30,822 nt of DNA from an uncultured Acidobacteriota bacterium (GTDB lineage Bacteria; Acidobacteriota; Vicinamibacteria; Marinacidobacterales; SMYC01): the NCBI GenBank assembly GCA_947259165.1, contig CAMYKY010000062.1:1-30822 (forward strand). Reading direction: 5' to 3'. This document shows positions 729 through 25,587 of this stretch, in pieces. Numbering within the stretch: the first letter of the stretch is position 1; the number at the start of each line of letters is the position of its first letter. The translations under genes and the position numbers were made by a program. The notes beneath the pieces were generated by a model that saw only the letters and a list, made by a program, of their open reading frames with translations, did not search any database and was not told where the DNA came from.

Positions 729-2473
729 TGAAGAAGTGCGGCGATCTCCTGGATGCGGTGCTCGAGTGCCGGGGTTTTCTCGGGAGTGCCGAAGCGCTCG
801 CGCAGTTTTTCAGGGATGAACATGGGGTCCGTGCTCTCGCGGATCGCGACGAGCTGCTGAAGCTCTTTTTCGAGGCCGTAGTCAGGCGTTCGAAAGTGCT
901 CGAGGGTCTCGCGAATATGGTTGGCTGTGGGTGCATCCGCGCCAGCGATTGCGGCACGCCGCACGCATTGGACGAGGAGGCTCTCGATATCCGCGCCTGA
1001 GAGCTCCGGCGGTAGCGGAGGAAGATCGTTGTCGTCGATCTTGACGCCATTTTTGCGCGCCATCGCGAGGAACATGCTCTTGCGCGCGGCTTCGGTCTCA
1101 GGAGGGAAGAGCGGGATGTGGACTTCGCACCGTCCCTGGCGCTTCAAGTCGACGGGGAGCAGATCGGGACGGCACGTCAAGAGCATCCACACGATCTTGC
1201 CTCGGTACCGAGTGTCGCTCATGAGAGACGAGATCATCGCGAACATGCGGCTCGAGGTTCCGCTGTCGCCACCCGCGGCGCGGCTTCCCAACGCCGCATC
1301 CGCTTCGTCGATGACGACGACCACCGGGCCGAGGGCTTTGATCACCGATAAGACTTTCTGAAGATTTCCCTCGGAGCTCCCCACCCATTTGCTGCGCAGG
1401 TTCTTGAACACGAGAGTCGGGATCCCAAGACTTCCGGCGAGACACGTTGCCGTGAACGTCTTACCCGTTCCGATCACCCCGCAGAGTAAATAGCCCATCG
1501 GCAAGGCTTCGAGTCGGCCGTCTTTGAAGAGGCGAACATCTTGCTCGAGCCGCTGTCTCACCGCTTCCGGGACGACGACCGTCTCGAGGTCGTAGCTCGG
1601 AGCCACGAAGTCGACCAGGCCGAAGCATTGCTTTTCGATCAACTCCTTTTTGGCCTCACGAAGCCGTTCGAGGTCGACGCGTTTGCCTTTTCCCCCGGAG
1701 CTTCCGACGGCCTGCGAGAGTCCCACGAGCGTGAGTCCGTTGGCCTCACGAGCAACGTCACGAGCCGCTTTGACGTTATCGAACAACGTCTTTGCAAAAC
1801 GCTCGCGTGTCGGCTCATCCGGGAGATCGACCTCGACCTTGGAAATGAACGGATTCTCGACGAGACGGCGATTGACGTCGCCGAGTGCTTCGGCAACGAG
1901 ACAAAGCGTGACATCCGCGCCGCGGATGCCGGGATCGTTGGCCCAATTGAGGACTTTGATGAGATGGGTACCGAGCTCTCCGCTCAGCATCGAGCTATCT
2001 ACGGCAGGGGTAATGGTCTCGATGTAGCGGATGATGATGGCGAGGCCTTTGCGGCTCCCGTTTTCGGGCGCATCGACGAGTTTGTGAAGAATGTAGCGGT
2101 CCAAGAGCTCGAAGACGAGCTTGGGATCTTGGAGACGCGCGTTGGCGTAGCTCGTTCCGCTGATCAGATCGATGGCCTTGAGTGTCTTGTGGAAGTCCTC
2201 CTGCATAGCCGCGCGGCGGTCGCTGTTGCCGGGTGCGAGAAATCGGATGCCGCTTCCACGATCATAGGAAAGGACGATGTCGCGTTGGCCGAAGAGCTGG
2301 GTCGCGAGGTAGTGCTCGAGAGAAACGAACTCCTCGTTCGCCGCCAAGGCTGGGCAAGACACGAGGTCGTGGACGTTGCCGTGGAGCAGAAACACGCTCG
2401 CCGAACCGCCGACGTAGCGGGTCGCGAGCTCGCGCGCCCAATCGGGCGCGCCATCGCCCAGCGGGTTATTCAC
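725..2473 (-). CDS. AAA+ ATPase, classical AAA clade, with ~300-aa N-terminal domain of unknown function
   Basis: 582-aa ORF. Walker A is GVIGTGKTF, Walker B is VVVIDEADA, and the second region of homology is TCRPDLLPVDLKRQGRCEVHI (RPD..R.GR arginine-finger pattern of classical AAA such as Vps4, katanin and FtsH). Its start overlaps the pspA stop by 8 bp. Confidence 0.8.
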   Translation of the reverse strand: MNNPLGDGAPDWARELATRYVGGSASVFLLHGNVHDLVSCPALAANEEFVSLEHYLATQLFGQRDIVLSYDRGSGIRFLAPGNSDRRAAMQEDFHKTLKAIDLISGTSYANARLQDPKLVFELLDRYILHKLVDAPENGSRKGLAIIIRYIETITPAVDSSMLSGELGTHLIKVLNWANDPGIRGADVTLCLVAEALGDVNRRLVENPFISKVEVDLPDEPTRERFAKTLFDNVKAARDVAREANGLTLVGLSQAVGSSGGKGKRVDLERLREAKKELIEKQCFGLVDFVAPSYDLETVVVPEAVRQRLEQDVRLFKDGRLEALPMGYLLCGVIGTGKTFTATCLAGSLGIPTLVFKNLRSKWVGSSEGNLQKVLSVIKALGPVVVVIDEADAALGSRAAGGDSGTSSRMFAMISSLMSDTRYRGKIVWMLLTCRPDLLPVDLKRQGRCEVHIPLFPPETEAARKSMFLAMARKNGVKIDDNDLPPLPPELSGADIESLLVQCVRRAAIAGADAPTANHIRETLEHFRTPDYGLEKELQQLVAIRESTDPMFIPEKLRERFGTPEKTPALEHRIQEIAALLQ

Positions 2474-3221
2474 TGGATTCGGGCGTCGCCTGTTTCTGGG
2501 GACCGACAGTTTTCTCGCTCGGCTCCGAGGACGGCTCCGCGAGCCCCTGTTCGATCTTGAACTGCGCGAGGAGCTCCGAGGCTTCCGCTTGTTCAGCGGC
2601 TTGTTTCGCCTTGAGGTTGTCCAATCCCTGGTCGCTGAGATCGCCCGCGACCTTGGAGCGGGCTTTCGCTTTGTTGATCTGGTCGTCGACGCGGCTCATG
2701 ATCTCGCCGATGTCCGTCGACACGTCGAACGAGGTGTTGAGAGCACCAGCGGTCTCGGAGACTTCGGCGAGCGCGTTTTCCATTTGAAGCGCCGCCTTCT
2801 TTTTTTGCAGATCTTTCTTGGAGTTTCCGATCTCCTTCAGCGCGGCTTTCATCTTCAAGAGGTTGTTCTCGTAGTTTTCTTGGTGCTGCGCGAGCTGCTC
2901 TTTGTTGCTCTCGAGCTCGGTCTTGACCTGCGCCAGCTCGAGCGCGAGCTGCCCGGCCATCTCTTCCTGGTTTGCCTTCAGATGATTCTTGATCTGGCCC
3001 GTGAGGCTAGTGATACGGGAAGTCTCACTTTGGACCTGACCTTGCACTTTCAGCACCATCGCCTGATAGGTGATGAGTCCCTGCCGAGCCTCCTTCAGCC
3101 GCTCGGTAGCCTGCTGCAGCTTGGTGTCGGCGAGCGCGATGACGTGCTTGTCTTCCATCTCGGTGACGGACTTGTTAATCAAGGCATACCAGACGGCTTT
3201 GATGCGTGCGAAAAGCCCCAT
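2466..3221 (-). CDS. pspA: PspA/IM30 (phage-shock protein A / Vipp1 family, ESCRT-III superfamily)
   Basis: The protein from internal Met MGLFARIKAVWYALINKSVTEMEDKHV (252 aa) matches the PspA/IM30 N-terminus (MGIFSRF..INA..EK.EDP) and is a long coiled-coil. There is a strong RBS: AGGGAG lies 6 nt upstream of the ATG at 3221. The 144 aa further upstream in the same ORF are Ser/Arg/Thr-rich low-complexity sequence and lie in the palindrome-containing intergenic region. Confidence 0.85.
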   Translation of the reverse strand: MGLFARIKAVWYALINKSVTEMEDKHVIALADTKLQQATERLKEARQGLITYQAMVLKVQGQVQSETSRITSLTGQIKNHLKANQEEMAGQLALELAQVKTELESNKEQLAQHQENYENNLLKMKAALKEIGNSKKDLQKKKAALQMENALAEVSETAGALNTSFDVSTDIGEIMSRVDDQINKAKARSKVAGDLSDQGLDNLKAKQAAEQAEASELLAQFKIEQGLAEPSSEPSEKTVGPQKQATPESSE

Positions 3222-3330
3222 CACTGACTCCCTTCGATGAATACCGCTCTGGAGAATGGTAAAGAACTCGTTGCCAAGGCGCAACGTTGCAGGTGACGAA
3301 CCGAAACCAGAACTCGCGATCCTCTGCTTC

Positions 3331-3439
3331 TTAACGCAAAGTCGCCAAGGCGCAAAGACGCAAAGAAAAGATTGGCCGAGCGGTTCGGACGAGCCATCCA
3401 CCCCCTTTGCGCCTTCGCGCCTTTGCGACTCTGCGTTAA
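3331..3439. repeat. palindromic CGCAAAG-heptad element (35-bp arms, 39-bp spacer) in the pspA upstream region
   Basis: Left arm is TTAACGCAAAGTCGCCAAGGCGCAAAGACGCAAAG (3331-3365). Right arm is CTTTGCGCCTTCGCGCCTTTGCGACTCTGCGTTAA (3405-3439), the reverse complement with about 85% identity. A further GCCAAGGCGCAACG half-site lies at 3271-3290. A related copy is at 22519-22660 and a fragment at 13739-13754. Confidence 0.6.
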
Positions 3440-3498
3440 AGAACTTACGGTGTCGACTCGTCCCCAGTTGCGCGTGGGCGGCGCTGAGTGAGAGAACA

Positions 3499-6400
3499 TC
3501 ATGTTGCGGGCTCGTCGGTCCCAGGCTCTTCCTCGTCGGTGATGTTCGACAGCGCCGAGACGTTGATCTTCTCGAGCGCTTCCACGAGCTCGGGGATGTC
3601 GTCGACGTACTCGAGTTTGTTGATGAGCGCTTTGATCTTCGGATCGTCGACACCGCGGAATCCCCGAAAGCGATGGGCCATGAACCGCATTAACGGGATC
3701 AGCGTTCCTTCAATAAGGTAGGACTCGCGTGAAATGAGCTCGTAATCGGCCGGCGGCGCCTGCGGCTCTGGCGGCTCGGCGGAGGGGGCGAGCGCGCTTG
3801 CACGCCCATTGCCAAAGGCTTCGAGGAGCTCATGGAGCTTTTCGATATAAGGTCCGAGGTCGAGCTGGACATCAACCTGAGGTGCTGGGGCCGGCTCGGC
3901 GGCCGCGCTGGCAGCAAACGCGAGGTCCGGATCCACAGACGGCGGTACCGGGCGTGATGCTGCTTTCGCTGTCGCCCGGTCGATACTCTCTCCGATACTT
4001 TCAAGGTGCTCGGAAACCATGCTGAGCTGTCCGGTCAGACGTGTCGCGGGGTCGTCGTCGCCACCACCCATGCGCTGGATACGGACGAAGCCTTTCTTGA
4101 TATCCTCCCATCGGGCGCGCTGCGTATCCGTCAAGCGGGCTCGCATCTCGCCGAGCTTGAGGAGATTCTCTTCTGCACCGGTGGTGAGAGTTTGAGACTC
4201 ACCGAGGTAGTGGTCGTCGATGAGGTTTTCGAGCTCTTCGTCGTTCATCGCCGGGACAATCTTTTCAGTGAGCTTGTTCATGTTCCGGTAGCTGCCCTGC
4301 AGCCGGAACGGGGGTTCGGTGCGGTACGCGTCCTCCTGAGATGCGGAGCGGATGTATTGCTGGTTGACGGCTAGAAGTGTCTCCTGCACTTTCAGGAGTT
4401 TCTTCAACACGGATAGAATCTCGCCGATTTCGACCGCCGAGTAGCCGTGTTGGAGCTGGTCGCTCTGGACCGGCTCGCCTTGGGCCATGCGAACCAGCAT
4501 GACGATGTCGTTTTGCTCCCGCGTGGTCAGCGGCGCGAGCACTCCGTTCGACGTTAGAGAATTCTCGATATAGGACAAGGCGAAGAGGTCGCTCTTGCCT
4601 TCGAGAATATCGCCCAGGTTGTAGGTGTCGGCGCGATTGGCCAGCATGTCTGGAATCTGGAACTTTTCCCCGGACTCGGTGTACGGGTTTCCCGCCATAC
4701 AAACGACGAACTTCTTGCCCCGCAGATCGTAGGTGCGGGTGCGTCCTTTCCATACACCTTCGACCTTGCGTTGGGCATCGCACAACGAGATGAACTTCTG
4801 GAGGAACTCGGGATGGGTGTGTTGGATATCGTCGATGTAGAGGAGAACGTTGTTACCCATCTCGAACGCGAGATTGAGCTTTTCGATCTCTTGCCGTGCG
4901 GTGGCGTTACCGGCTTCGGCCGGATCGAGCGACGTCACCGAGTGGCCGAGGGCGGGCCCGTTGATCTTCATGAAGACGAGCCCGAGGCGGTTGGCCAGAT
5001 ACTCCATCAGCGTCGTTTTGCCGTAGCCCGGCGGTGAGATGAGAAGGAGCATGCCCATCAAGTCGGTACGCTTCGCTTCGCCGAGTGCGCCCATTTGCTT
5101 GGCGAGGTTGTCGCCGATCAACGGGAGGTACACGTCGTTGATGAGTCGATTGCGCACGAACGAGGACATCACCTTGGGCTTGTACTCGTCGAGACGCAGG
5201 ACGTCGCGCTCCCGATCCAACACGGCGTGCCGCGCTTTTTGGAAGTCGCGAAAGCCGGGGACGCGTCGGTACCGGAAATGGCCGAGACGTGACAGGAACT
5301 CATCGAGGTGGAGCTGCATGCGGCCCTGCTGGATCCGCGGGTGCTGTCCCAACAAACCCTCGATCGCGACTTTGGCCTGAGCACTCGAAGTTTCGCGGCT
5401 GACCTTGCCTTCGAACAGGATCGCGACAACGGTTTCTTGCGCGGCGCGGACCGGGCGGTCGTTCTTCTCGGCAAAAGTCGTTACCCACGCGAGCGCAACG
5501 TCATAGGCGCGCACCGGCGATTCTCGAAGTCCGCGAAGATCCTGTTCGAAGTCCCGCTCGGCGCCAGATTCTCGCAAGTGTTTATCGAAGGCTTGCTTGA
5601 GCTCGTCGGCTTCCGCACTGAGAACGAATTTCTGGGGCTCACGCGCGATCTCCTGGAGGAGATAAGCGCCCGCGACGCGCGCCGCCCGCTCAGGCACGTC
5701 GATGCCGAGCTCGGACAGATGTTCGACGATCGCCGCGTTGAGCTCGGTGCTGAGCTCGCTCAGCACGTCACTTTGTTCGAAGTGGATACGCAGGCGATGC
5801 AGGCTCTTCGCTTGGCTTTCCCACTCCGAGCGCTTCTTGCGGTCTGGAAACAACGCCCAAAACACCGTGGCGAGCGCTCGCGCTGTCGGTGTGAACCGCA
5901 GCAGGCCGGCACTTTCGTACATGCCGAGCATCTTCTGAAGAATCAGAGCCGCGTCGGCGTCGTGGAGACCGCGCTCGTATCCTTCGTCGTAGCGCTCGGC
6001 CGCGTAGTCCCGCACGGTTGCAAGAAGCTGCTTTTCGACCCGAGTTGCTTCGTGAAGCTTCGCGAGTGAGAGTCCTGCGTCGCCGATTTCAGCGTCTTCG
6101 AGAATGCAATACGCGAGGTATTCCGACCGGTAAACGTCATCGGTCTCGGAGACCAGCTCCTGGTCCCAGAACTCGCGCGTCTTGGAGAAGGCTTCGTCAG
6201 CGATCGCTTCGTAAAAGCCCGTGCCACTCAAGTGAAACGCCATCCCGTCGTCGCGGGGCACCATCGTTAGCTCGAGCGGTTGGGTATTGACGCTGAAGCG
6301 GTGGCGTCCAAACTTGATGACGTTGGCGCCGTCCTCGTAGATTTCCTGGCGATCGCGCAGGCCACGTGCTGCGTCTTCTTTGGCGGCTTTGAGCCGGCCA

Positions 6401-8895
6401 TCAATCTCGTCGGCATGGACCGAGTCGCCGAGCTCTCTCAGGTTGGCCGAGGTGCTTCGAAGCTTGGCGACCATGGGGTCGGCCGCGAAGTATGCGTTCA
6501 GATCGTCGGAGCTTTTGAACGTTTCGGCACGCCGGGTGACGCTTGCGAGAATGCGCTCCGCTGCCTGCATCAACGTCTGCGCTCGTCGTTGGCGCTGGTC
6601 CACGAGGGATTGCTTCTTGGAGCTGAAGGCTTCGTAAATCTCCTCGCGCTTGGTGGTGAGCTCGGTGACGAACTCGTCGAACTCGGAAAAGCGGGTTTCG
6701 AGGTCTTCGAGCTGCAGCATGAGCTTCGACAGCTGCTCGTCGCATTTCTCGGGAGAGCCCGACAGAGCGAGCGCGCTGGTAACGCTTTGGCTGAGGAGCT
6801 GGAACTGGACCCCGAACTCGGCGATGCCTTCTTTGCCGAGTAGCTCCTTCCGCCGGTTGGCGATGAGAGCCCGTACTCGGTTGAGGCTTCCCATGATCTC
6901 CGAGATGTTGCCGAGGATCTGTGTCCTCACCGTCGCATCTTCGATATCGAGCGAGCCGACGACATCGGTCAATAGATCGAGGCTGTCGCCGAGCTCCTGA
7001 AGGGACTCCTGATGTTCGTTGGCTTCGGTGACTTTTGCTAGGCCCGGAACCATTTCTTCGAGCTCGGCCGCTCGCAGGTGGTAGGGAACCAGTGCCTCGG
7101 CCTTCAACAGGAAGTCGACGGCGCGCTGGCTCACAGTATCGAACCGCTCGACGATCTCTGCCTCGAGAGCATCGATATTGTCGAGGTCGACGTAGCGTAC
7201 CTCGCGCAAGGTAATGAGATGGCCGCGGGCCGAGCGCAAGCTGGCGAGACAGGCGACGAACTGATCGATCGACGTCCACGAGTCGGGATAGATGTTGCGG
7301 AAAATATCTTGAACTCTCTCGGCAGATTCGGCAAGCGCTTTTGTCGCGTCGGCGCGCAGCGCTTCGACTTTCTCGAATTCGTCAATGATGCTCTCGGCGG
7401 TGGCGTGAACTTCGTTCAGGACTACACGTAGGTTGCCGATCTCGGCGTTGTCGAGCCAGTAGTAGCTGTCGATCACCCGCTCGGTCGCAGAGACGATGTC
7501 TTCGTACTTTTGTCGGGTGGGCTGCTGCTCGTCGACCATGCGCCGGATGGAGAGGCAATCCGAGACGCCGCGGACGAGCTCGGCGTTGCCGACTTTCTCG
7601 AGAAACGACCCGGTCGGCGGAAGGGCTTTCACGTGGTCGTCACTCATGAACGGCGTGCGCCACAGCTGCATGTTGTGGACGCGCTTGGGCTCGTCGGTGT
7701 CGGCGCGAAAGATGATGACGGTGCCGTCGGGAAAGAGGCTGAACCCGTGGCAGTTGAGAGGATTGTCGACTTCCTTCCGGATCATGTTGTACGGCAGCAA
7801 AATGGTGCGCCCAGAGGCTCGCTCATGAAACGCGTAGAGCACGTCCTCACCGTTGGGTGAGCGGATACGGCGCAAAAACTCCATCCCCTCGATTTCGCGG
7901 TCGAACGATTTGGTGTGACCGCTTTGAAGGTAATAACCGCCGGGGAAAATGATGCCGTGGTCTTCAGGAAGCTGGACGCACGCATGACCGATGGCGTCGA
8001 TCCGATCGACCTGATGGGTCCGAGTGTTGAACACGAGGTAGCGGTACTCGGTCTCACGGTAGGGAAGGACCTTGAGCAGAATGAGGGTTCCCACTTTGGC
8101 GTAGTGGACCTCGGCGTCGTCGAGCGCCTGGTCGGCATCGATCACCGGCTCTTGATAGATGCCTTGGCCGTCCTCCGTGTTGTTCTCGACCTTGATGGTG
8201 AAATCGCCCCCGAGCGTCTCCACGAAGACTTCGTCGAGAATGTTGACGTGGGGGAAACGGCCTGCGATGTGGTCTTCGCGCGCTGTCGTCGTCCATTCGA
8301 AGTCGTGTGTCGGAGGGAATACGTGGTCGCGCTCGCCGCGGTTGTCGATATAGCTGACGGCGCCATCCGGGGTCATGGCCCAGCGAAAGACGCGAACATC
8401 GGTGATCTTTTCGCCGATCTGGAACACCGCGAGGAGCTTGTCGCCGACGGTCCTCAGCTGGAGCAGTCGGGTTTGAGCGTAATATTGATAGAGCTCCTTG
8501 AACTCCTCGACGAACTTGGGATCGGAGAGGAAGTAGGCGGGCGAGTCTTTGGCGACAGCGTGCAACGTGATGCCGTCGTCGGTTTTGTCGAACGTGTGCA
8601 GGCTGAAAACGTCGTCGACGTGCGTCTCGCGCTTGAGGCCGATGAAAACGTTGTAGCCGAAGAGGAGGCGGTTGCCGACCTCCTTGATATCCCGGGGAAC
8701 GCAGTTGTTTTCGGTGCGGATCCGTTCGTTGCCCAGGACTGCGAGCTCGGTGCCGCCGAAGAGCTCGAGGCGTTTCTTGTTGAGGCTATCCGCCCGCTCG
8801 GCCAGCGTTTTACCGTGGCCGAGAAGGCGGTCTCGAATAATCTCGTAAGTGCCGCGCTCGATCTCGGGTTTTTGAGTGTCAGGACTGGTGCTCAT
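3499..8895 (-). CDS. giant (1798 aa) multidomain protein with internal AAA_5 (MoxR/McrB/dynein-like) ATPase module
   Basis: Uninterrupted 5.4-kb ORF. Around aa 1285-1440 (about nt 4560-5050) lie Walker A LISPPGYGKTT, Walker B NVLLYIDDIQH and sensor-1 FVVCMAGNPY. Long predicted helical and coiled-coil stretches precede the ATPase, and an Ala/Pro-rich linker plus a ~80-aa C-terminal domain follow it. RBS AGGTG lies 7 nt upstream of the ATG, and there is only a 10-nt gap after the flotillin stop. Confidence 0.85.
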   Translation of the reverse strand: MSTSPDTQKPEIERGTYEIIRDRLLGHGKTLAERADSLNKKRLELFGGTELAVLGNERIRTENNCVPRDIKEVGNRLLFGYNVFIGLKRETHVDDVFSLHTFDKTDDGITLHAVAKDSPAYFLSDPKFVEEFKELYQYYAQTRLLQLRTVGDKLLAVFQIGEKITDVRVFRWAMTPDGAVSYIDNRGERDHVFPPTHDFEWTTTAREDHIAGRFPHVNILDEVFVETLGGDFTIKVENNTEDGQGIYQEPVIDADQALDDAEVHYAKVGTLILLKVLPYRETEYRYLVFNTRTHQVDRIDAIGHACVQLPEDHGIIFPGGYYLQSGHTKSFDREIEGMEFLRRIRSPNGEDVLYAFHERASGRTILLPYNMIRKEVDNPLNCHGFSLFPDGTVIIFRADTDEPKRVHNMQLWRTPFMSDDHVKALPPTGSFLEKVGNAELVRGVSDCLSIRRMVDEQQPTRQKYEDIVSATERVIDSYYWLDNAEIGNLRVVLNEVHATAESIIDEFEKVEALRADATKALAESAERVQDIFRNIYPDSWTSIDQFVACLASLRSARGHLITLREVRYVDLDNIDALEAEIVERFDTVSQRAVDFLLKAEALVPYHLRAAELEEMVPGLAKVTEANEHQESLQELGDSLDLLTDVVGSLDIEDATVRTQILGNISEIMGSLNRVRALIANRRKELLGKEGIAEFGVQFQLLSQSVTSALALSGSPEKCDEQLSKLMLQLEDLETRFSEFDEFVTELTTKREEIYEAFSSKKQSLVDQRQRRAQTLMQAAERILASVTRRAETFKSSDDLNAYFAADPMVAKLRSTSANLRELGDSVHADEIDGRLKAAKEDAARGLRDRQEIYEDGANVIKFGRHRFSVNTQPLELTMVPRDDGMAFHLSGTGFYEAIADEAFSKTREFWDQELVSETDDVYRSEYLAYCILEDAEIGDAGLSLAKLHEATRVEKQLLATVRDYAAERYDEGYERGLHDADAALILQKMLGMYESAGLLRFTPTARALATVFWALFPDRKKRSEWESQAKSLHRLRIHFEQSDVLSELSTELNAAIVEHLSELGIDVPERAARVAGAYLLQEIAREPQKFVLSAEADELKQAFDKHLRESGAERDFEQDLRGLRESPVRAYDVALAWVTTFAEKNDRPVRAAQETVVAILFEGKVSRETSSAQAKVAIEGLLGQHPRIQQGRMQLHLDEFLSRLGHFRYRRVPGFRDFQKARHAVLDRERDVLRLDEYKPKVMSSFVRNRLINDVYLPLIGDNLAKQMGALGEAKRTDLMGMLLLISPPGYGKTTLMEYLANRLGLVFMKINGPALGHSVTSLDPAEAGNATARQEIEKLNLAFEMGNNVLLYIDDIQHTHPEFLQKFISLCDAQRKVEGVWKGRTRTYDLRGKKFVVCMAGNPYTESGEKFQIPDMLANRADTYNLGDILEGKSDLFALSYIENSLTSNGVLAPLTTREQNDIVMLVRMAQGEPVQSDQLQHGYSAVEIGEILSVLKKLLKVQETLLAVNQQYIRSASQEDAYRTEPPFRLQGSYRNMNKLTEKIVPAMNDEELENLIDDHYLGESQTLTTGAEENLLKLGEMRARLTDTQRARWEDIKKGFVRIQRMGGGDDDPATRLTGQLSMVSEHLESIGESIDRATAKAASRPVPPSVDPDLAFAASAAAEPAPAPQVDVQLDLGPYIEKLHELLEAFGNGRASALAPSAEPPEPQAPPADYELISRESYLIEGTLIPLMRFMAHRFRGFRGVDDPKIKALINKLEYVDDIPELVEALEKINVSALSNITDEEEPGTDEPAT

Positions 8896-11003: not shown

Positions 11004-11846
11004 TCACGACTCCTCCGTGATCTTCACGGCTTCCGTGAGCGCGGCGTCCACCGGGCCGATGAAGAAGATCCCTTCGGACGGCTCGTAGCGGTAGACGAGT
11101 GCCTGAGTGCCACGTTTTAGATCGTTGTTCTGAGGGCAGCGCACCTCGGCGACAAAGCCCGCGCCACCGTCTTCGATCTCGGCTCGGCCGAATTGTTCGT
11201 CGACGCGCGCCGATAGAACCGTGCACAGCTTCCCCACGAGTGATGCTCGGCGAGGTGCTTGTTGAGTTACGAAGAGTCTTCGGAAAGGCCTCGAGGTCAG
11301 GGCCGCCATCACTAGAGCGCCGAAGCCGGAGGCGACGGCGATGGTGAGACCGGCGAGAAACGTCGCCGCCATGGGGCCCAAGAATCTCGTGGCTAGATAG
11401 CTGATAATCCAAGCCCAGAAGATCGCGAACGTTCCCACGATGGTGATCGGAACGCCGCGTACACCCATGGCGTTCAATATGCCGGACAGGAGGCCACCAC
11501 TGTGTCCGTCGGCCGCCTCCGCCGCACCCTCCGCCGCCGCACCCTCAGCGACTCCCTCAGCGACTCCCTCAGCGACTCCCTCAGCGACTCCCTCAGCGAC
11601 TCCCTCAGCGACTCCCTCAGCGACTCCCTCGAGGGCACCATCCATCACTCCGTCCGCAACGCCGTCGAGGGACTCGATTGCCCCGTCGAATGCAGCGTCC
11701 ATGGAGTCCAGCCCGAGGATGGTGTCGAGGAAGTCGATGTCCAGCGCCCCGAAAATCACCACGAGCCAGTAAAGGAGCGCCATCGCCAGGGCGCACGTGA
11801 ACACGATTGTTGGAAACGACACGAGCGTGGTGAGGAATTCCTGCAC
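11004..11846 (-). CDS. NfeD/YuaF-like membrane protein (C-terminal OB-fold NfeD domain) with internal (GVAE)n repeat
   Basis: Proposed GTG start at 11846 with GGAG 8 nt upstream. The N-terminal portion of the track ORF (11847-12107) looks non-coding. The protein has TM helices flanking a GVAE x7 repeat. The C-terminal soluble segment LVGKLCTVLSARVDEQFGRAEIEDGGAGFVAEVRC..GTQALVYRYE fits the NfeD beta-barrel pattern. Its position immediately upstream of flotillin matches the conserved nfeD-flotillin pair. Confidence 0.65.
   Translation of the reverse strand: MQEFLTTLVSFPTIVFTCALAMALLYWLVVIFGALDIDFLDTILGLDSMDAAFDGAIESLDGVADGVMDGALEGVAEGVAEGVAEGVAEGVAEGVAEGVAEGAAAEGAAEAADGHSGGLLSGILNAMGVRGVPITIVGTFAIFWAWIISYLATRFLGPMAATFLAGLTIAVASGFGALVMAALTSRPFRRLFVTQQAPRRASLVGKLCTVLSARVDEQFGRAEIEDGGAGFVAEVRCPQNNDLKRGTQALVYRYEPSEGIFFIGPVDAALTEAVKITEES
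11545..11628. repeat. perfect 7 x 12-bp tandem repeat (TCAGCGACTCCC) inside the NfeD-like CDS
   Basis: Seven identical units with no synonymous variation, flanked by degenerate copies (11521-11544). On the coding strand they encode (GVAE)7. The repeat is in-frame (12 = 4 codons). Confidence 0.9.
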
Positions 11847-12034
11847 GCTTTCAGCTCCTTTCGACTGACGAGTCGCGGATCGGTCGGTTCGATGACGTGC
11901 CGACGACGCGACAATTAGGCTAAGAGAAGCCTCTCCCGTTCGACAGAAAGCTATCGCTACGCGAGAACCGTGGTTTCGGTTGTAGTTGTGCCGGTTGTGG
12001 TGGTCCGGGCCCTTTGGCTCGAACTCTGCCACCA

Positions 12035-12064
12035 ATAATAAAGCAAACCGGGGCGAAAAATCAA
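12035..12064 (-). promoter_or_regulatory. candidate sigma70-type promoter for the minus-strand six-gene cluster (TTGATT-N18-TATTAT)
   Basis: Read on the minus strand, TTGATT (12064-12059) is followed after 18 nt by TATTAT (12040-12035). This gives a ~180-nt 5' UTR to the GTG at 11846. It is a sequence match only. Confidence 0.25.
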
Positions 12065-12257
12065 GCGCGCATCCAGCGTTTTGCGTCTTCCGGTCACCCG
12101 TGTCCAAGACGTTGTTGCGGTTGTGAAAAGCACAGAGTTTCTTTATGTGTTGTCAGCGGGTGAGCTTCGGACGTGTATAAATTCCTATTCAACAGTGCAT
12201 TGGGGAAGCGTGGTGGCTGAATGCGCGAACGCAGAGTTGCGAATCGGTATTTTCGTC

Positions 12258-12562: not shown

Positions 12563-12593
12563 CGGTTATCGGCGGTCGGTTATCGGTTATCGG
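12563..12593. promoter_or_regulatory. three closely spaced GGTTATCGG direct repeats 60-90 bp upstream of leuB
   Basis: GGTTATCGG occurs at 12564-12572, 12578-12586 and 12585-12593, immediately before a TTGACC hexamer (12596-12601). Confidence 0.35.
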
Positions 12594-12649
12594 TCTTGAC
12601 CTGATGTTAGCGTTCTCTCCTCGTCGGCTTTCGTGGTAATAATCTCGGC

Positions 12650-13714: not shown

Positions 13715-13822
13715 GCCGATTCCCCGTCAAGAGTCCTGACGCAAAGTCGCAAAGCTAGTCGAGCCAGATTGGGCCAGGGGCGCCCGTGACGGCGGAGTAC
13801 GGCTGTGGTTCCGTGGCGAATG

Positions 13823-14281
13823 CTATTTTTTTGCGGCCTTAGCTTTCAGCTTCTCGTCGATGAAATCCCCATGTGGGACGTGCAGCAGCTTCGCGACTTT
13901 GCGGATTAGGTATTCTTCGCGTTCTTCGAGGCGATCGTCGCTGAACGCGACTTGCCACAGCAGTCCGACGATGTGCTTTTTCTGCTCCGGCGTGAAGCTG
14001 GCGTCGACGAGGCGGGTGAACTCGTACAACGAGATCGCCTCGTCAACTTCTTGCTCGGCGAGGGCAATGATGTCGCGAGTCTCGTCCTCGGTGATGCCGA
14101 AACCCGAGCGAAGCGCCTCTTCGATCGCGAGTTTCTCTTCTTCCCCGACCTCGAAGTCCGCACGCGAGACTTCGATCAGCAGCGCCGCGGTGGCGAGTCT
14201 TTGTGCGTGCTCCATCGAGGCGGGGGTCGTCTCCTCGGTCACGATGCGAGCGTAGAAAAATTCCTGAATCGTTCTAATCAA
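13823..14281 (-). CDS. TerB-like (tellurite-resistance TerB family) small acidic protein
   Basis: 152 aa with two TerB-like repeats: AALLIEVSRADFEVGEEEKLAIEEAL and VGLLWQVAFSDDRLEEREEYLIRKVAKLL. Confidence 0.45.
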   Translation of the reverse strand: MIRTIQEFFYARIVTEETTPASMEHAQRLATAALLIEVSRADFEVGEEEKLAIEEALRSGFGITEDETRDIIALAEQEVDEAISLYEFTRLVDASFTPEQKKHIVGLLWQVAFSDDRLEEREEYLIRKVAKLLHVPHGDFIDEKLKAKAAKK

Positions 14282-16468: not shown

Positions 16469-16577
16469 TAACTCGTACGCTCCACGCCGTGGATTATTAC
16501 AGTTAAAACGTGTTTACCCCTGTCCTAATCGAGACTGTGCCGCTGCCCCGTAACGTCCCTGTTACTGAGAAAGCCAT

Positions 16578-16695
16578 CGTGCCCCCGCCCGTGCCCGTGA
16601 GCGTGCCCGAAACCCTAAAAGAACGCATGAGTCCGTCGCGAAAATCGGGCACGGGCACGCACGCGGGCACGGGCACGACGGGTGTGCGGGCACCG
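16578..16695. repeat. GGGCAC-repeat palindromic element, copy A (arms ~32 bp, conserved 36-nt loop)
   Basis: Left arm is CGTGCCCCCGCCCGTGCCCGTGAGCGTGCCCG (16578-16609). The loop is AAACCCTAAAAGAACGCATGAGTCCGTCGCGAAAAT. Right arm is CGGGCACGGGCACGCACGCGGGCACGGGCACG (16646-16677), with an extra GCGGGCAC to 16695. It lies in the divergent promoter region between the ECF sigma and the VOC gene. Copy B is at 25465-25559. Confidence 0.7.
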
Positions 16696-20338: not shown

Positions 20339-21571
20339 ATGAAGAAGTTTTTCCTCTCTGGGGTGGCGTTGGTGCTCGGGGTAGGTCTTTATTTCGGCGT
20401 TCGGGCGATCGACAGGATGGCCGTTTCCTACTTGACCGGGCCGCGTCGGGTTGTTGGTGAGGGGTCCTGGGGCGAGAAGATTCCGAGTGACGGGCCAGTC
20501 CCCGGAACTGCTTTTTTGGGGTTCATGGGACCCTCAGAAGATCCGCCCGGTCTGCGCATCATGCGACCGCGAGAAACAGGACAGGAGCTCGGTCTCCTAC
20601 GCGGCGATGTCGTAACGGAGGTCGACGGCGAGACATTTCGTTCGGGCCGTGAGCTCATGGAGCATCTGGTTCAAAACCATACAGCTGGGGATTCCGTTTC
20701 CATTACCGCGGTGACAGCCGGCGAGCCGCCGCGGACGATGTCGATGAAGCTACGTGCTCTGTTGCGGCATCCCGGAGACTTGGGCCTCGCTTACGAAGAC
20801 GTGGAGATGCAATCGGACAGTGGCAACGTTCTTCGTGGCTGGTTCGTTCCTCCGCCGGAGCGAAGCGACGGTCGGGTCGGCATCTTCGTGCACGGTGCGT
20901 ACTCCTCGAGGTATCAAGCGCTCGAAAACGGCGGGAAGTATTGGTACCCCCGTGGCTACGGTTTGTTGACGATGGACTTGAGTGGACACGGCTCGAGCGG
21001 AGGTGACTACGTTACGTATACCGTCAAGGAGCGCCAGGACGTGGCGGCTATGGTGCGGTGGGCCCGCACCCATCCGGCGATCGATCCTCGACGGGTGGTT
21101 GTGTTCGGCACCTCGAATGGCGCCGCGTCAGTCATCTATGCCGCCGCCGCGGATGGCGAGATTCCCGGGCTCGCTCTCGATGCGCCCTACGGGAACTTGT
21201 GGGATGCGGCGGGCTCGATGTTGAGCGCGCGTGGCGGGAGCGCGATCCTGCGCTACCCCTTATTCCTCGCAGTGTGGTGGCGTACGGGTATCGATCTCGG
21301 AGAGGTACGGCCGGCAGATGTCATCACCGATATCCAAGCCCCGGTACTCTTCATTCATGGGGACGCTGACCGGCGGGTTCCGCTGACTCATTCAGAAAGC
21401 ATGCACGCCGCTCGCGAACAAGCGGGTCTTCCCAGCGAGCTCTGGGTTTTGCCCGGTGGTGAGCACGGCTTTGACAACTACCCACCGGAAGGGATTTTCT
21501 GGAGTCGGGTTCTCGATTTCTTCGATCGAGCGCTCGGAGGTCCTCCGCCCGAGTGGGACCTGTCCTCCTGA
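20339..21571 (+). CDS. membrane-anchored/secreted PDZ-domain alpha/beta-hydrolase (serine peptidase/esterase-like)
   Basis: N-terminal hydrophobic signal/anchor MKKFFLSGVALVLGVGLYF and a PDZ-like segment GLLRGDVVTEVDGETF. The hydrolase triad elements are GTSNG (GxSxG), HGDADRRV and GGEHGF. An alternative start is at 20318. Confidence 0.7.
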   Translation: MKKFFLSGVALVLGVGLYFGVRAIDRMAVSYLTGPRRVVGEGSWGEKIPSDGPVPGTAFLGFMGPSEDPPGLRIMRPRETGQELGLLRGDVVTEVDGETFRSGRELMEHLVQNHTAGDSVSITAVTAGEPPRTMSMKLRALLRHPGDLGLAYEDVEMQSDSGNVLRGWFVPPPERSDGRVGIFVHGAYSSRYQALENGGKYWYPRGYGLLTMDLSGHGSSGGDYVTYTVKERQDVAAMVRWARTHPAIDPRRVVVFGTSNGAASVIYAAAADGEIPGLALDAPYGNLWDAAGSMLSARGGSAILRYPLFLAVWWRTGIDLGEVRPADVITDIQAPVLFIHGDADRRVPLTHSESMHAAREQAGLPSELWVLPGGEHGFDNYPPEGIFWSRVLDFFDRALGGPPPEWDLSS

Positions 21572-21579
21572 AGACGATC

Positions 21580-22302
21580 ATGGCTATCAAAGATCTCCTG
21601 ACTTCCGAGGGGCGCCTCAAATTTCGCATCCAACGCAAGACGAAAACGCTCCTGGAGCGTTACGCGCAACACGATGCGCGTATGGAGGCCGCGGACATAT
21701 TGCGTGAGATTGGAACGCCCGAGGCTATCTTCGGACTCGCGCGCCGGTTCTCGTCGACGTCCGAGAATCTTGGTACCGATCAAGAAGAAAAAAAGCGTAT
21801 CCAGGACGTACTCGTTGCGTTCGGCGACGATGCCGTCGAACCGTTGCAGCGCTACATCCGAAGCTACGACAAGGTGACTTGGGCTATCGATGCGTTGAAG
21901 ACGCTCCAACCGCGAGACGCGCTCATCCCGTTCCTGTTCGAGGTGTTGAGCGAGGGAGATCCTGTCCGGATACGAGGGGAAAAAGCTCACCAGATTCTCA
22001 AAGCGCTCGAGAATCTCGACGACCCCAACGTCGTCGATGGGGTCATGCCTTGTCTGTCGAGCTCTGATGACACGGTGCGTATCGCCGCCATCGAATGCCT
22101 CGAGGTGTACGGAGACGAGCGTGCTCGGGAACCGTTGCTCGAAACGCTCGTGAACCCCGACGAGGACTCGATGCGGGTGAAGATGAAAATTGGTGAAGCG
22201 CTCGAAAAGCTCGAGTGGGACGTCAAGGGCTACCGCAAACGAGTCGAAAGCGCTCTTCCCGAGCAGTTCCGGGTGACGTCTAAAGGTCGGATTACGCACT
22301 AG
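21580..22302 (+). CDS. HEAT/PBS-lyase-type repeat protein
   Basis: Repeated DP.VR..A..AL..LGD..A...L helical units, e.g. DPNVVDGVMPCLSSSDDTVRIAAIECLEVYGDERAREPLLETL. The start is taken at MAIKDL. The track ORF starts 27 nt earlier, inside the upstream gene. Confidence 0.55.
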   Translation: MAIKDLLTSEGRLKFRIQRKTKTLLERYAQHDARMEAADILREIGTPEAIFGLARRFSSTSENLGTDQEEKKRIQDVLVAFGDDAVEPLQRYIRSYDKVTWAIDALKTLQPRDALIPFLFEVLSEGDPVRIRGEKAHQILKALENLDDPNVVDGVMPCLSSSDDTVRIAAIECLEVYGDERAREPLLETLVNPDEDSMRVKMKIGEALEKLEWDVKGYRKRVESALPEQFRVTSKGRITH

Positions 22303-22497
22303 TGCTCGGACCCGCTGATCCTGTCGTAAATTCCGGGTCCTTTTCGGCGCTGCCGGCGTTGCGAGCATCGTTGCAGTTCGGCCTACGGCCTATCCCTCCG
22401 CTCGACAAGCTCGCTGCGGAAGGCGGCAAATATCTCTTGGCAGCGCCAAAAATGACCTCGCAATTTACCGACAGGATCAGCGGGTCCAAGCACTAGC
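22297..22497. repeat. ~200-bp unit bounded by 28-bp terminal inverted repeats (ACTAGTGCTCGGACCCGCTGATCCTGTCG ... CGACAGGATCAGCGGGTCCAAGCACTAG)
   Basis: The left TIR (22297-22325) and right TIR (22469-22497) are reverse complements with one mismatch. The unit starts at the HEAT gene stop codon. It is either a MITE-like element or a long structured RNA. Confidence 0.5.
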
Positions 22498-22518
22498 GCC
22501 GCTGTGCCACTAAGAAAG

Positions 22519-22660
22519 TTAACGCAAAGGCGCCAAGGTGCAGAGACGCAAAAAAAGAGCCGTCGTCGGCGCACAATGCAACCACGCACCGCCGAGATCG
22601 AGATCCCAACGCCCCCGTTTGTGCTGGATGGACGTCCGCCCCTTTGCGTTTTATGTTCTT
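22519..22660. repeat. second, more degenerate copy of the CGCAAAG-heptad palindromic element
   Basis: TTAACGCAAAGGCGCCAAGGTGCAGAGACGCAAAAAAAG (22519-22556) is ~85% identical to the left arm at 3331-3365. A remnant right arm CCCCTTTGCGTTTTATG lies at 22637-22655. It is upstream of the SSF transporter gene. Confidence 0.5.
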
Positions 22661-25400: not shown

Positions 25401-25464
25401 GGGTGAAGACCTCTAAGACGAGACTGGGGGAGGAGCCGCTAAGAAGCACATCGCTACCGACCCT

Positions 25465-25559
25465 CGTGCCCGTGTCCGCATGCGTGCTCGAAAAACCTCC
25501 AGAAAACGCATGGATCCGTCGAGGAATCGGGCACGGGCACGCACGCGGGCACGGGCACG
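25465..25559. repeat. GGGCAC-repeat palindromic element, copy B
   Basis: The right arm CGGGCACGGGCACGCACGCGGGCACGGGCACG (25528-25559) is identical 32/32 to copy A. The loop AAAAACCTCCAGAAAACGCATGGATCCGTCGAGGAAT is ~75% identical to copy A, and the left arm CGTGCCCGTGTCCGCATGCGTGCTCG has diverged. It lies between the methyltransferase stop and the small-protein/LLM operon start. Confidence 0.7.
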
Positions 25560-25587
25560 ATTTCCGTTGCCTTTGACGGAAGAGACA

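Follow-up and report, generated by a model that had tools for sequence, protein, structure and literature searches.

A tandem-repeat palindrome upstream of pspA in an Acidobacteriota genome is probably a cargo-less copy of a cross-phylum element linked to GxxExxY genes

Among the extragenic palindromes of bacteria, REP/BIME carry a GTAG/CTAC head on a short imperfect palindrome, and the RAYT (Y1 transposase) gene is flanked by such repeats. As RNA, the REP/BIME hairpins can stabilise the upstream mRNA.

The 23S rRNA IVS of Coxiella, Leptospira, Salmonella and others combine a terminal complementary stem of about 28-35 bp, which is cleaved by RNase III, with a loop that can contain a small ORF; short versions without the ORF exist as well, and the IVS are regarded as selfish, with an unknown mechanism of mobility (PMC4990558). 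Intergenic heptamer repeats, such as TAACTGA (PMC4679880) and GGGNATC (PMC4692102), show a puzzling distribution across phyla.

Here we analyse a palindrome that lies directly upstream of pspA in a 30,822-nt stretch of DNA, referred to below as the window, which, judged by its PspA homologs, belongs to Vicinamibacteria-like Acidobacteriota. An earlier note on this DNA had described an inverted repeat of 35/35 bp with a 39-bp spacer in the gap between pspA and an adjacent giant gene and had read it as a regulatory site, with a small mobile palindromic repeat family as the alternative. The repeat itself is confirmed, and the distribution of its relatives, together with its presence and absence among orthologous loci, supports the alternative. 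The locus comprises the following features.

Positions 2466-3221, minus strand: pspA, with a PspA_IM30 match and the ATG at 3221.
Positions 3222-3498: gap between the giant gene and pspA, 277 bp.
Positions 3273-3308, minus strand: outer right flank, which holds the 'half-site' GCCAAGGCGCAA, the palindrome GCAACGTTGC and a small, terminator-like hairpin at 3286-3269.
Positions 3331-3365, minus strand: arm that is 3' in the sense transcript, CTTTGCGT CTTTGCGC CTTGGCGA CTTTGCG followed by TTAA.
Positions 3366-3404, minus strand: loop of 39 nt without an ORF, homologous to the loop of the orthologous copies in L134 and L137, with GGCTCGTCC in common.
Positions 3405-3439, minus strand: arm that is 5' in the sense transcript, TTAA followed by CGCAGAGT CGCAAAGG CGCGAAGG CGCAAAG.
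Positions 3449-3479, minus strand: outer left flank, which pairs with 3273-3308 and does not occur in L125, L126 or L134.
Positions 3499-8895, minus strand: giant gene of 1798 aa with DUF3686, DUF7902 and AAA domains.

The palindrome spans 109 bp in total (3331-3439), and its two 35-nt arms are 89% complementary. Each arm consists of TTAA and four 8-nt units CGCNAAGN, a unit being a 7-nt core plus one variable base, mostly a purine; the repeat period is accordingly 8 nt (TRF), rather than that of the CGCAAAG heptad from which the arms had been thought to be built. When up to 2 mismatches are allowed, the window contains 10 occurrences of the motif CGCAAAGNCGCAAAG, compared to 0.49 expected, and none of 100 shuffles reaches 10. 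The 121-nt RNA of the palindrome region is predicted to fold with -75.1 kcal/mol, compared to -40.5 in shuffles (z = -9.85), and the outer helices formed by 3449-3479 and 3273-3308 enlarge this hairpin into a 207-nt compound, imperfect palindrome, so that the whole gap amounts to one compound hairpin. Rfam covers the window with no family at gathering score and no rRNA matches, and the matches below threshold are to miRNA precursors alone, reflecting a generic long hairpin. Short, non-coding and bounded by terminal inverted repeats, the palindrome is built like a MITE; its location between two protein-coding genes is not the 23S rRNA helix tip that is characteristic of IVS.

A very stable, GC-containing hairpin between two genes might be an intrinsic, possibly bidirectional, terminator or attenuator separating the giant gene from pspA. 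However, a U-tract follows the stem on neither strand, the stem is far longer than those of terminators, the flanks across the family described below are rich in T on the 5' side and in A on the 3' side, which is the reverse of a terminator, and the sole find of a terminator scan of the gap is the small ancestral hairpin 3286-3269. Termination or attenuation by the palindrome thus appears extremely improbable.

We compared the window with 20 related pspA loci, among which the cluster of the giant gene, pspA, the AAA gene and the CxxCxxCC gene is conserved. In many of these (L001/L125, L002, L003/L004/L133, L127, L128, L129, L130/L138), the spacer between the giant gene and pspA is 49-94 bp long and free of the palindrome; this set includes the closest relative, L125/L001, which is 90% identical to the window in the nucleotide sequence of pspA and is its sister. 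The CGCAAAG palindrome is present in the same spacer of three relatives, L126, L134 and L137, with a loop and immediate flanks homologous to those of the window (GGCTCGTCC; GTT[CT]TT[TC]AACGC...GCGTT[AG]A[GA]AAG). In these three loci, the element lies 8 nt after the stop codon and 50-53 nt before the pspA ATG; the corresponding distances in the window are 58 and 109 nt. In the neighbor-joining (NJ) tree of pspA, ((L137,L134),L126) is the sister group of (L125,window), a topology that, combined with the presence or absence of the element, implies either one gain and one loss or two gains. The copy would have entered the DUF3686-AAA/pspA spacer in the ancestor of a small Vicinamibacteria-like clade, and the sister lineage would have lost it later or never gained it.

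The additional half-site that had been assigned to the array, at 3271-3290 and including the palindrome GCAACGTTGC (3281-3290), is real (82%) but does not belong to the intact array. The block is kept in the element-free L125/L001 as ttgcgccatggca and is therefore ancestral, either predating the intact element or separate from it; the proximal part of the outer right flank is likewise common to L125/L001. A separate observation is a 9-nt direct repeat AGTTCTTTA on the minus strand, found at 3444-3436, just before the element, and at 3268-3260, just before the conserved pspA leader. We do not regard this repeat as a simple target duplication, given that its second copy is preceded by ancestral sequence that L125 has too.

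The ancestral sequence downstream of the element also contains the best candidate for a pspA promoter.

Positions 3256-3284, minus strand: candidate pspA promoter, TTGCGC at 3284-3279, N17 and TACCAT at 3261-3256, ending 34 nt before the ATG.

A sigma-70 scan of the gap reports no promoter, this candidate scoring just below the scan threshold. A similar box is found also in relatives without the palindrome, and in every relative a TA[CG][CG]AT box lies 32-36 nt ahead of the ATG, even where a different gene precedes pspA. By this conservation, TTGCGC-N17-TACCAT is a plausible promoter, and pspA may still be expressed independently, in that case more likely through this box than through the palindrome. 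A sigma-54 reading of TGGCA-N-TTCTTT, made by eye, was not maintained, since the -12 GC is missing. A clade more distant from the window (L131, L132, L135, L136, L140) does not have the giant gene upstream of pspA; in the region about 330 nt upstream of pspA, these loci have a terminator-like hairpin and a long non-coding leader with the extended -10-like box TGTGTTACGAT, so that pspA has its own promoter in that clade.

Two other sites in the window had been listed as related copies, one upstream of an SSF transporter gene and the other downstream of leuB.

Positions 22519-22650, between divergent genes: degenerate second copy, with the left arm TTAACGCAAAGGCGCCAAGGTGCAGAGACGCAAAA and a right arm reduced down to CCCCTTTGCGTT.
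Positions 13740-13754, plus strand: two-unit fragment CGCAAAGTCGCAAAG, 25 nt downstream of leuB.

Ahead of the SSF gene, a copy is indeed present but degenerate, with 4 units in the left arm, one left in the right arm and fold z values of only -1.2/-2.2. The site near leuB contains the two-unit fragment, but its complementary partner at 13887-13903 is coding sequence of a genuine terB (TerB, E = 8.6e-33), and the fragment may be a remnant or a chance match. The intergenic 17-mer 13740-13756 is 94% complementary to 13887-13903, the codons RKVAKL near the 3' end of the convergent terB; this pairing may be due to chance, antisense/terminator pairing or an inverted duplication. The loops of the first copy (3383-3397) and the degenerate second copy (22621-22634) have in common a 14-15-nt motif TGGATGG(C)NCGTCCG, located at an equal distance from the right arm in both but in opposite orientation.

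The window contains other repeats as well. A 31-nt inverted repeat (22296-22326 / 22469-22499; 94% complementary, 142 nt apart), the left arm of which overlaps the start of ORF 21478-22368, adjoins the degenerate CGCAAAG copy and suggests another nested or adjacent palindromic element. A second family of palindromic tandem repeats is represented at 16574-16681 and 25464-25560 by CGTGCC / CGGGCA hexamers in arms of 37 and 27 nt, with homologous loops (AACGCATG.GTCCGTCG..GAA.ATCGGGCACG) and hairpins of -68 and -61 kcal/mol (z -4.8 and -5.6). Within ORF 11004-12107 (minus strand, no Pfam domain), the perfect 12-nt tandem repeat CCCTCAGCGACT (x7.4, 100% identity, 11542-11630) looks like a recently expanded 4-aa repeat.

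Beyond this lineage, scanning GTDB representative genomes with the pattern TTAACGCARAGNCGCNAAGNNGCNNAG yields matches in at least 120 loci from Verrucomicrobiota, Acidobacteriota, Chloroflexota, Planctomycetota, Chlamydiota, Lentisphaerota and Kiritimatiellia as well as Myxococcota, Geomonas, Nostoc, Bacteroidota and Gammaproteobacteria, a few of the MAG assignments in this taxonomy being doubtful. Complete isolate genomes are among the matches listed (three of Sorangium, Verrucomicrobia IMCC26134 and two of Geomonas). The architecture is constant, namely, (t)TTAA, 2-5 units CGCAAAGR, a loop and a mirror arm ending in TTAA or TTGA, such that the typical ends are (T)TTAACGC...GCGTTAA(A), and the loops, from a few nt to more than 160 nt long, show no kinship between genomes. 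A clear partner arm (alignment score of at least 13) accompanies about half of the listed matches, nearly always within 58-250 nt, and several more have a weaker, decayed partner arm close by. Only 9 of the 120 listed loci contain at least two separate copies per 8 kb; in L006, the loops of two copies separated by 2.3 kb are homologous, a sign that the element has spread inside a genome. Nested tandem-repeat palindromes occur in the loops of L028, L030, L053 and L068. The element-bearing loci are strongly enriched in 7-nt and 8-nt tandem arrays compared to other periods, a general excess into which fits the STRR-like heptamer array CGGTTAT x4.6 at 12563-12594 of the window, just upstream of leuB. 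In BLAST searches with the arm consensus, plasmid matches come from three plasmids only (Nostoc, Thiodictyon, Sphaerospermopsis), and phages give no convincing match. We found no description of this family in the literature on the arm sequence, GxxExxY, PF13366 or IVS-like elements.

Across these phyla, the copies adjoin unrelated genes, and 20 of the 28 that could be classified with a simple, crude ORF caller lie between co-directional ORFs, often filling the spacer. This distribution bears on the proposal that the palindrome is an operator, that is, an array of several sites for a regulator, dimeric or multimeric, through which pspA-AAA-ykgJ would be expressed independently and in a stress-inducible manner, possibly within a regulon. 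Such a function would be compatible with an inverted repeat of repeated sub-sites directly upstream of pspA, with the related sequence upstream of the SSF transporter gene and with the retention of the element in this spacer in L126, L134 and L137. Yet the closest relative and most orthologs have the same gene cluster without the element, the element is 109 nt away from the start codon of pspA in the window but 50-53 nt in the relatives, the copy ahead of the SSF gene has decayed, the identical architecture recurs beside unrelated genes in many phyla, and full-length copies, to be described presently, have an ORF of their own. The operator hence becomes highly improbable, and so does the regulon inferred from the additional copies, given that the family is not confined to a coherent gene set or lineage.

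The full-length copies contain, in the loop between the same arms, a gene of the GxxExxY family (PF13366 / PDDEXK_3, with a minimal PD-(D/E)XK fold); GxxExxY genes are found between CGCAAAG-type arms in L110, L031, L105, L141, L145, L147 and L148. The 476-nt copy in L110 includes a 130-aa loop ORF that is GxxExxY (TIGR04256, E = 5e-39), and tblastn of the loci identifies GxxExxY genes with arms TTCAACGCGGAG... on either side in L031 and with a CGCAAAG arm in L105. A decayed 25-aa fragment of GxxExxY remains within the CGCAAAG element of L025, and the GxxExxY genes of L020 and L099 have other repeat types at their flanks. With the same termini as the short copies, these ORF-bearing elements correspond to MITE parents, except that the ORF is no recognised transposase. 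We found no account in the literature of this link between the palindrome family and GxxExxY genes.

This link holds when the loci are chosen without regard to DNA. Four homologs of the L110 protein with about 70% identity (P0117, P0173, P0118, P0194) were picked by protein similarity only, which removes DNA-based ascertainment, and the same arms flank GxxExxY in 4/4 of their loci. All four have the structure host stop, (T)TAA/TGA-(CGCAAAGN)3-4, ATG...GxxExxY...stop, (NCTTTGCG)3-4-TTAA, next gene, with insertions between oppD and oppF-like ATPases, between miaB-like and CDP-alcohol transferase genes and, on two contigs, between pgk and tpiA, and in all four places the GxxExxY ORF is co-oriented with the host genes. 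Beside its ORF-bearing copy, L147 contains another one without cargo, the two being arranged in tandem. The stop codon of the host gene, TAA, coincides with the end of the terminal TTAA of the element in L141 and L147. Co-oriented GxxExxY genes are seen in tight housekeeping-operon spacers, including SDR|next gene, in L141, L145, L147, L148, L156, L159 and L160.

A second, L020-like GxxExxY subfamily is about 35% identical to the first, and its genes lie, in 4/4 loci (L020, L156, L159, L160), between arms of another type, AACCGCGAAT(GAACGCGAAT)n, with a mirror ending in ATTCGCGGTT. The arm type thus co-varies with the protein subfamily in a sample of two subfamilies, mostly from Verrucomicrobiota; such co-variation could reflect simple co-inheritance rather than recognition. 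Within the left arm of this second type (L156:953-1012, L159:924-1012, L160:972-1012), the start codon and the first codons, ATG AAC GCG AAT (MNAN), are repeat units of the arm. GxxExxY homologs from viral contigs have no arms.

In the GxxExxY proteins, the PD-(D/E)XK catalytic set E...D...(D/E)xK is conserved, and the AF2 model is confident (pLDDT 92.7). Its Foldseek neighbours, Cas4, lambda-type exonucleases, splicing endonucleases and a homing endonuclease, are weak and therefore assign no specific nuclease subtype, and a sequence search of the PDB gives no solved relative. The GxxExxY/PDDEXK_3 family is very large, with at least 8,000 candidates, and we found almost nothing on it in the literature; PF13366 is entered as 'unknown, multiple transfers' (PMC3424549).

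The ends of the elements were inspected for duplication of target sites. No direct repeat is detectable beyond the terminal TTAA (mean 1.20 compared to 1.10 in shuffles), and in L126 and L134 the left end TCAA pairs with the right end TTGA, inverted rather than direct, so that the tetranucleotide behaves as a part of the inverted repeat rather than as a duplication. We also considered, and abandoned, insertion of the elements into pre-existing palindromes: long palindromic flanks exist in only 3/54 copies, and the mean excess of flank palindromy over copies is merely T at -1 and A at +1. A REP/BIME-type element moved by RAYT, or a MITE of a classical IS with TTAA or TA target duplication, would also be short, palindromic, extragenic, multi-copy and mostly located between co-directional genes, and the TTAA termini do resemble a possible target duplication. 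However, apart from the inverted TCAA/TTGA ends and the failure to detect a duplication beyond TTAA, the GTAG head is missing, the 30.8-kb window encodes no RAYT or transposase, and GxxExxY is the only ORF repeatedly found between identical arms, all of which makes an element of either of these types very unlikely.

Taken together, these observations lead us to consider it likely that the segment 3331-3439 represents not a site for a regulator of pspA but a MITE-like copy, devoid of cargo, of a palindromic element that spreads horizontally, has TTAA-(CGCAAAGN)n ends and contains GxxExxY in its full-length form; any effect at the RNA level is then most likely a by-product. The sequence pattern suggests that the element may transpose, possibly by means of the GxxExxY protein. 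A point against this reading is that neither the window nor about 100 kb of related Vicinamibacteria-like loci yielded a GxxExxY gene.

Such RNA effects are nevertheless to be considered. Since pspA and the giant gene are both encoded on the minus strand, the element would be included in any read-through transcript. The RNA would then fold into a double-stranded stem measuring about 35 bp in the core and more than 50 bp with the outer flanks, a likely substrate for RNase III and a barrier to 3'-exonucleases. As IVS stems and REP hairpins suggest by analogy, such a stem could uncouple one cistron from the other. For the window, L134 and L126, a very stable hairpin is predicted, and the predicted structures of full-length copies have the ORF enclosed by the paired arms. 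One can go further and suppose that the hairpin was exapted, being kept by selection as an RNase III site or a 3'-end stabiliser that sets the giant-gene:pspA expression ratio; the REP in malE-malF of E. coli has a comparable effect on the expression ratio of neighbouring genes. Four genomes that are about 20% diverged in pspA keep the element in this spacer with near-perfect stems, a persistence that could reflect selection for a function there. In the window, the hairpin is 15 kcal/mol more stable in the sense than in the antisense orientation, with 3/4 of the stem imperfections being G.U in sense; the sense strand is also the more stable one in 7/9 ORF-bearing copies, a weak bias, and the prevalence of copies between co-directional ORFs is in line with a role in transcripts. 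Against this, 23 cargo-less copies have no sense/antisense bias (10 vs 13, p = 0.92), the antisense strand is the more stable one in L126, the sister lineage does without the element, and processes at the DNA level can keep palindromes symmetric. We regard exaptation as the primary explanation as unlikely. Because these tests of selection on RNA are equivocal, we treat the RNA effect of what is probably a mobile-element copy as a by-product, most likely not the reason for the sequence, and maybe exapted in this clade.

At this locus, the analysis removes a false regulatory lead, control of pspA through the palindrome being probably ruled out in favour of an insertion; in annotation, such hairpins are to be expected as insertions able to split or stabilise operon transcripts. 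It also joins two unexplained things, tandem-repeat palindromes scattered across phyla and the very large GxxExxY/PDDEXK_3 family. The co-variation of arms with subfamilies and the repeated insertion in housekeeping operons give a testable hypothesis for IVS-like mobility and for the role of GxxExxY. Tentatively, and as a possibility to which we assign clearly less weight than to the reading of the window copy itself, palindromes of the TTAA-(CGCAAAGN)n type, together with related ones that have other arms, might mark the ends of small mobile elements of a class not yet described, in which a predicted PD-(D/E)XK nuclease of about 126 aa, GxxExxY, is the only gene. This protein would recognise the arms in a subfamily-specific manner, as a DNA hairpin/cruciform or an RNA stem. 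The elements would home to positions immediately behind stop codons in operon spacers and be carried along by transcription of the host genes, as mRNA-borne counterparts of the 23S rRNA IVS. If so, the very large orphan GxxExxY family would gain a function, and IVS-like hairpins and many 'junk' tandem-repeat palindromes of environmental bacteria would gain a testable origin.

The palindrome family is not a member of the IVS, MITE, REP/BIME or heptamer-repeat families. Like IVS, it has a long terminal stem and a loop with an optional small ORF, ORF-less forms included, and this resemblance is an analogy only, not membership. IVS reside in 23S rRNA helix tips, whereas the palindromes occupy intergenic spacers of mRNA; the ORF of IVS belongs to the S23p / four-helix-bundle family, that of the palindromes is GxxExxY; the arms of IVS are not described as tandem 8-nt repeats; and cleavage by RNase III, shown for IVS, would apply to the palindromes by analogy.

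With MITEs and their parents, the family shares short non-coding copies that have the same terminal inverted repeats as the ORF-bearing ones, multiple copies with a patchy distribution among relatives, and decayed copies. Unlike in MITE parents, the ORF is no known transposase and the arms are themselves tandem arrays in which the number of units varies, and, unlike in MITEs, no target-site duplication beyond TTAA was found. REP/BIME of enterobacteria and pseudomonads are likewise extragenic, located mostly between co-directional genes of operons and able to form RNA hairpins; the palindromes differ from them in the lack of the GTAG head and, in the window, of RAYT, and in having much longer stems, a variable loop and a sequence conserved across phyla. 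Finally, the cyanobacterial STRR and the TAACTGA and GGGNATC repeats resemble the palindrome arms in their intergenic tandem units of 7-8 nt and their preference for spacers between co-directional ORFs, but these are direct arrays without a mirror arm or cargo, whereas the palindrome family consists of inverted pairs of arrays that bound a discrete element.
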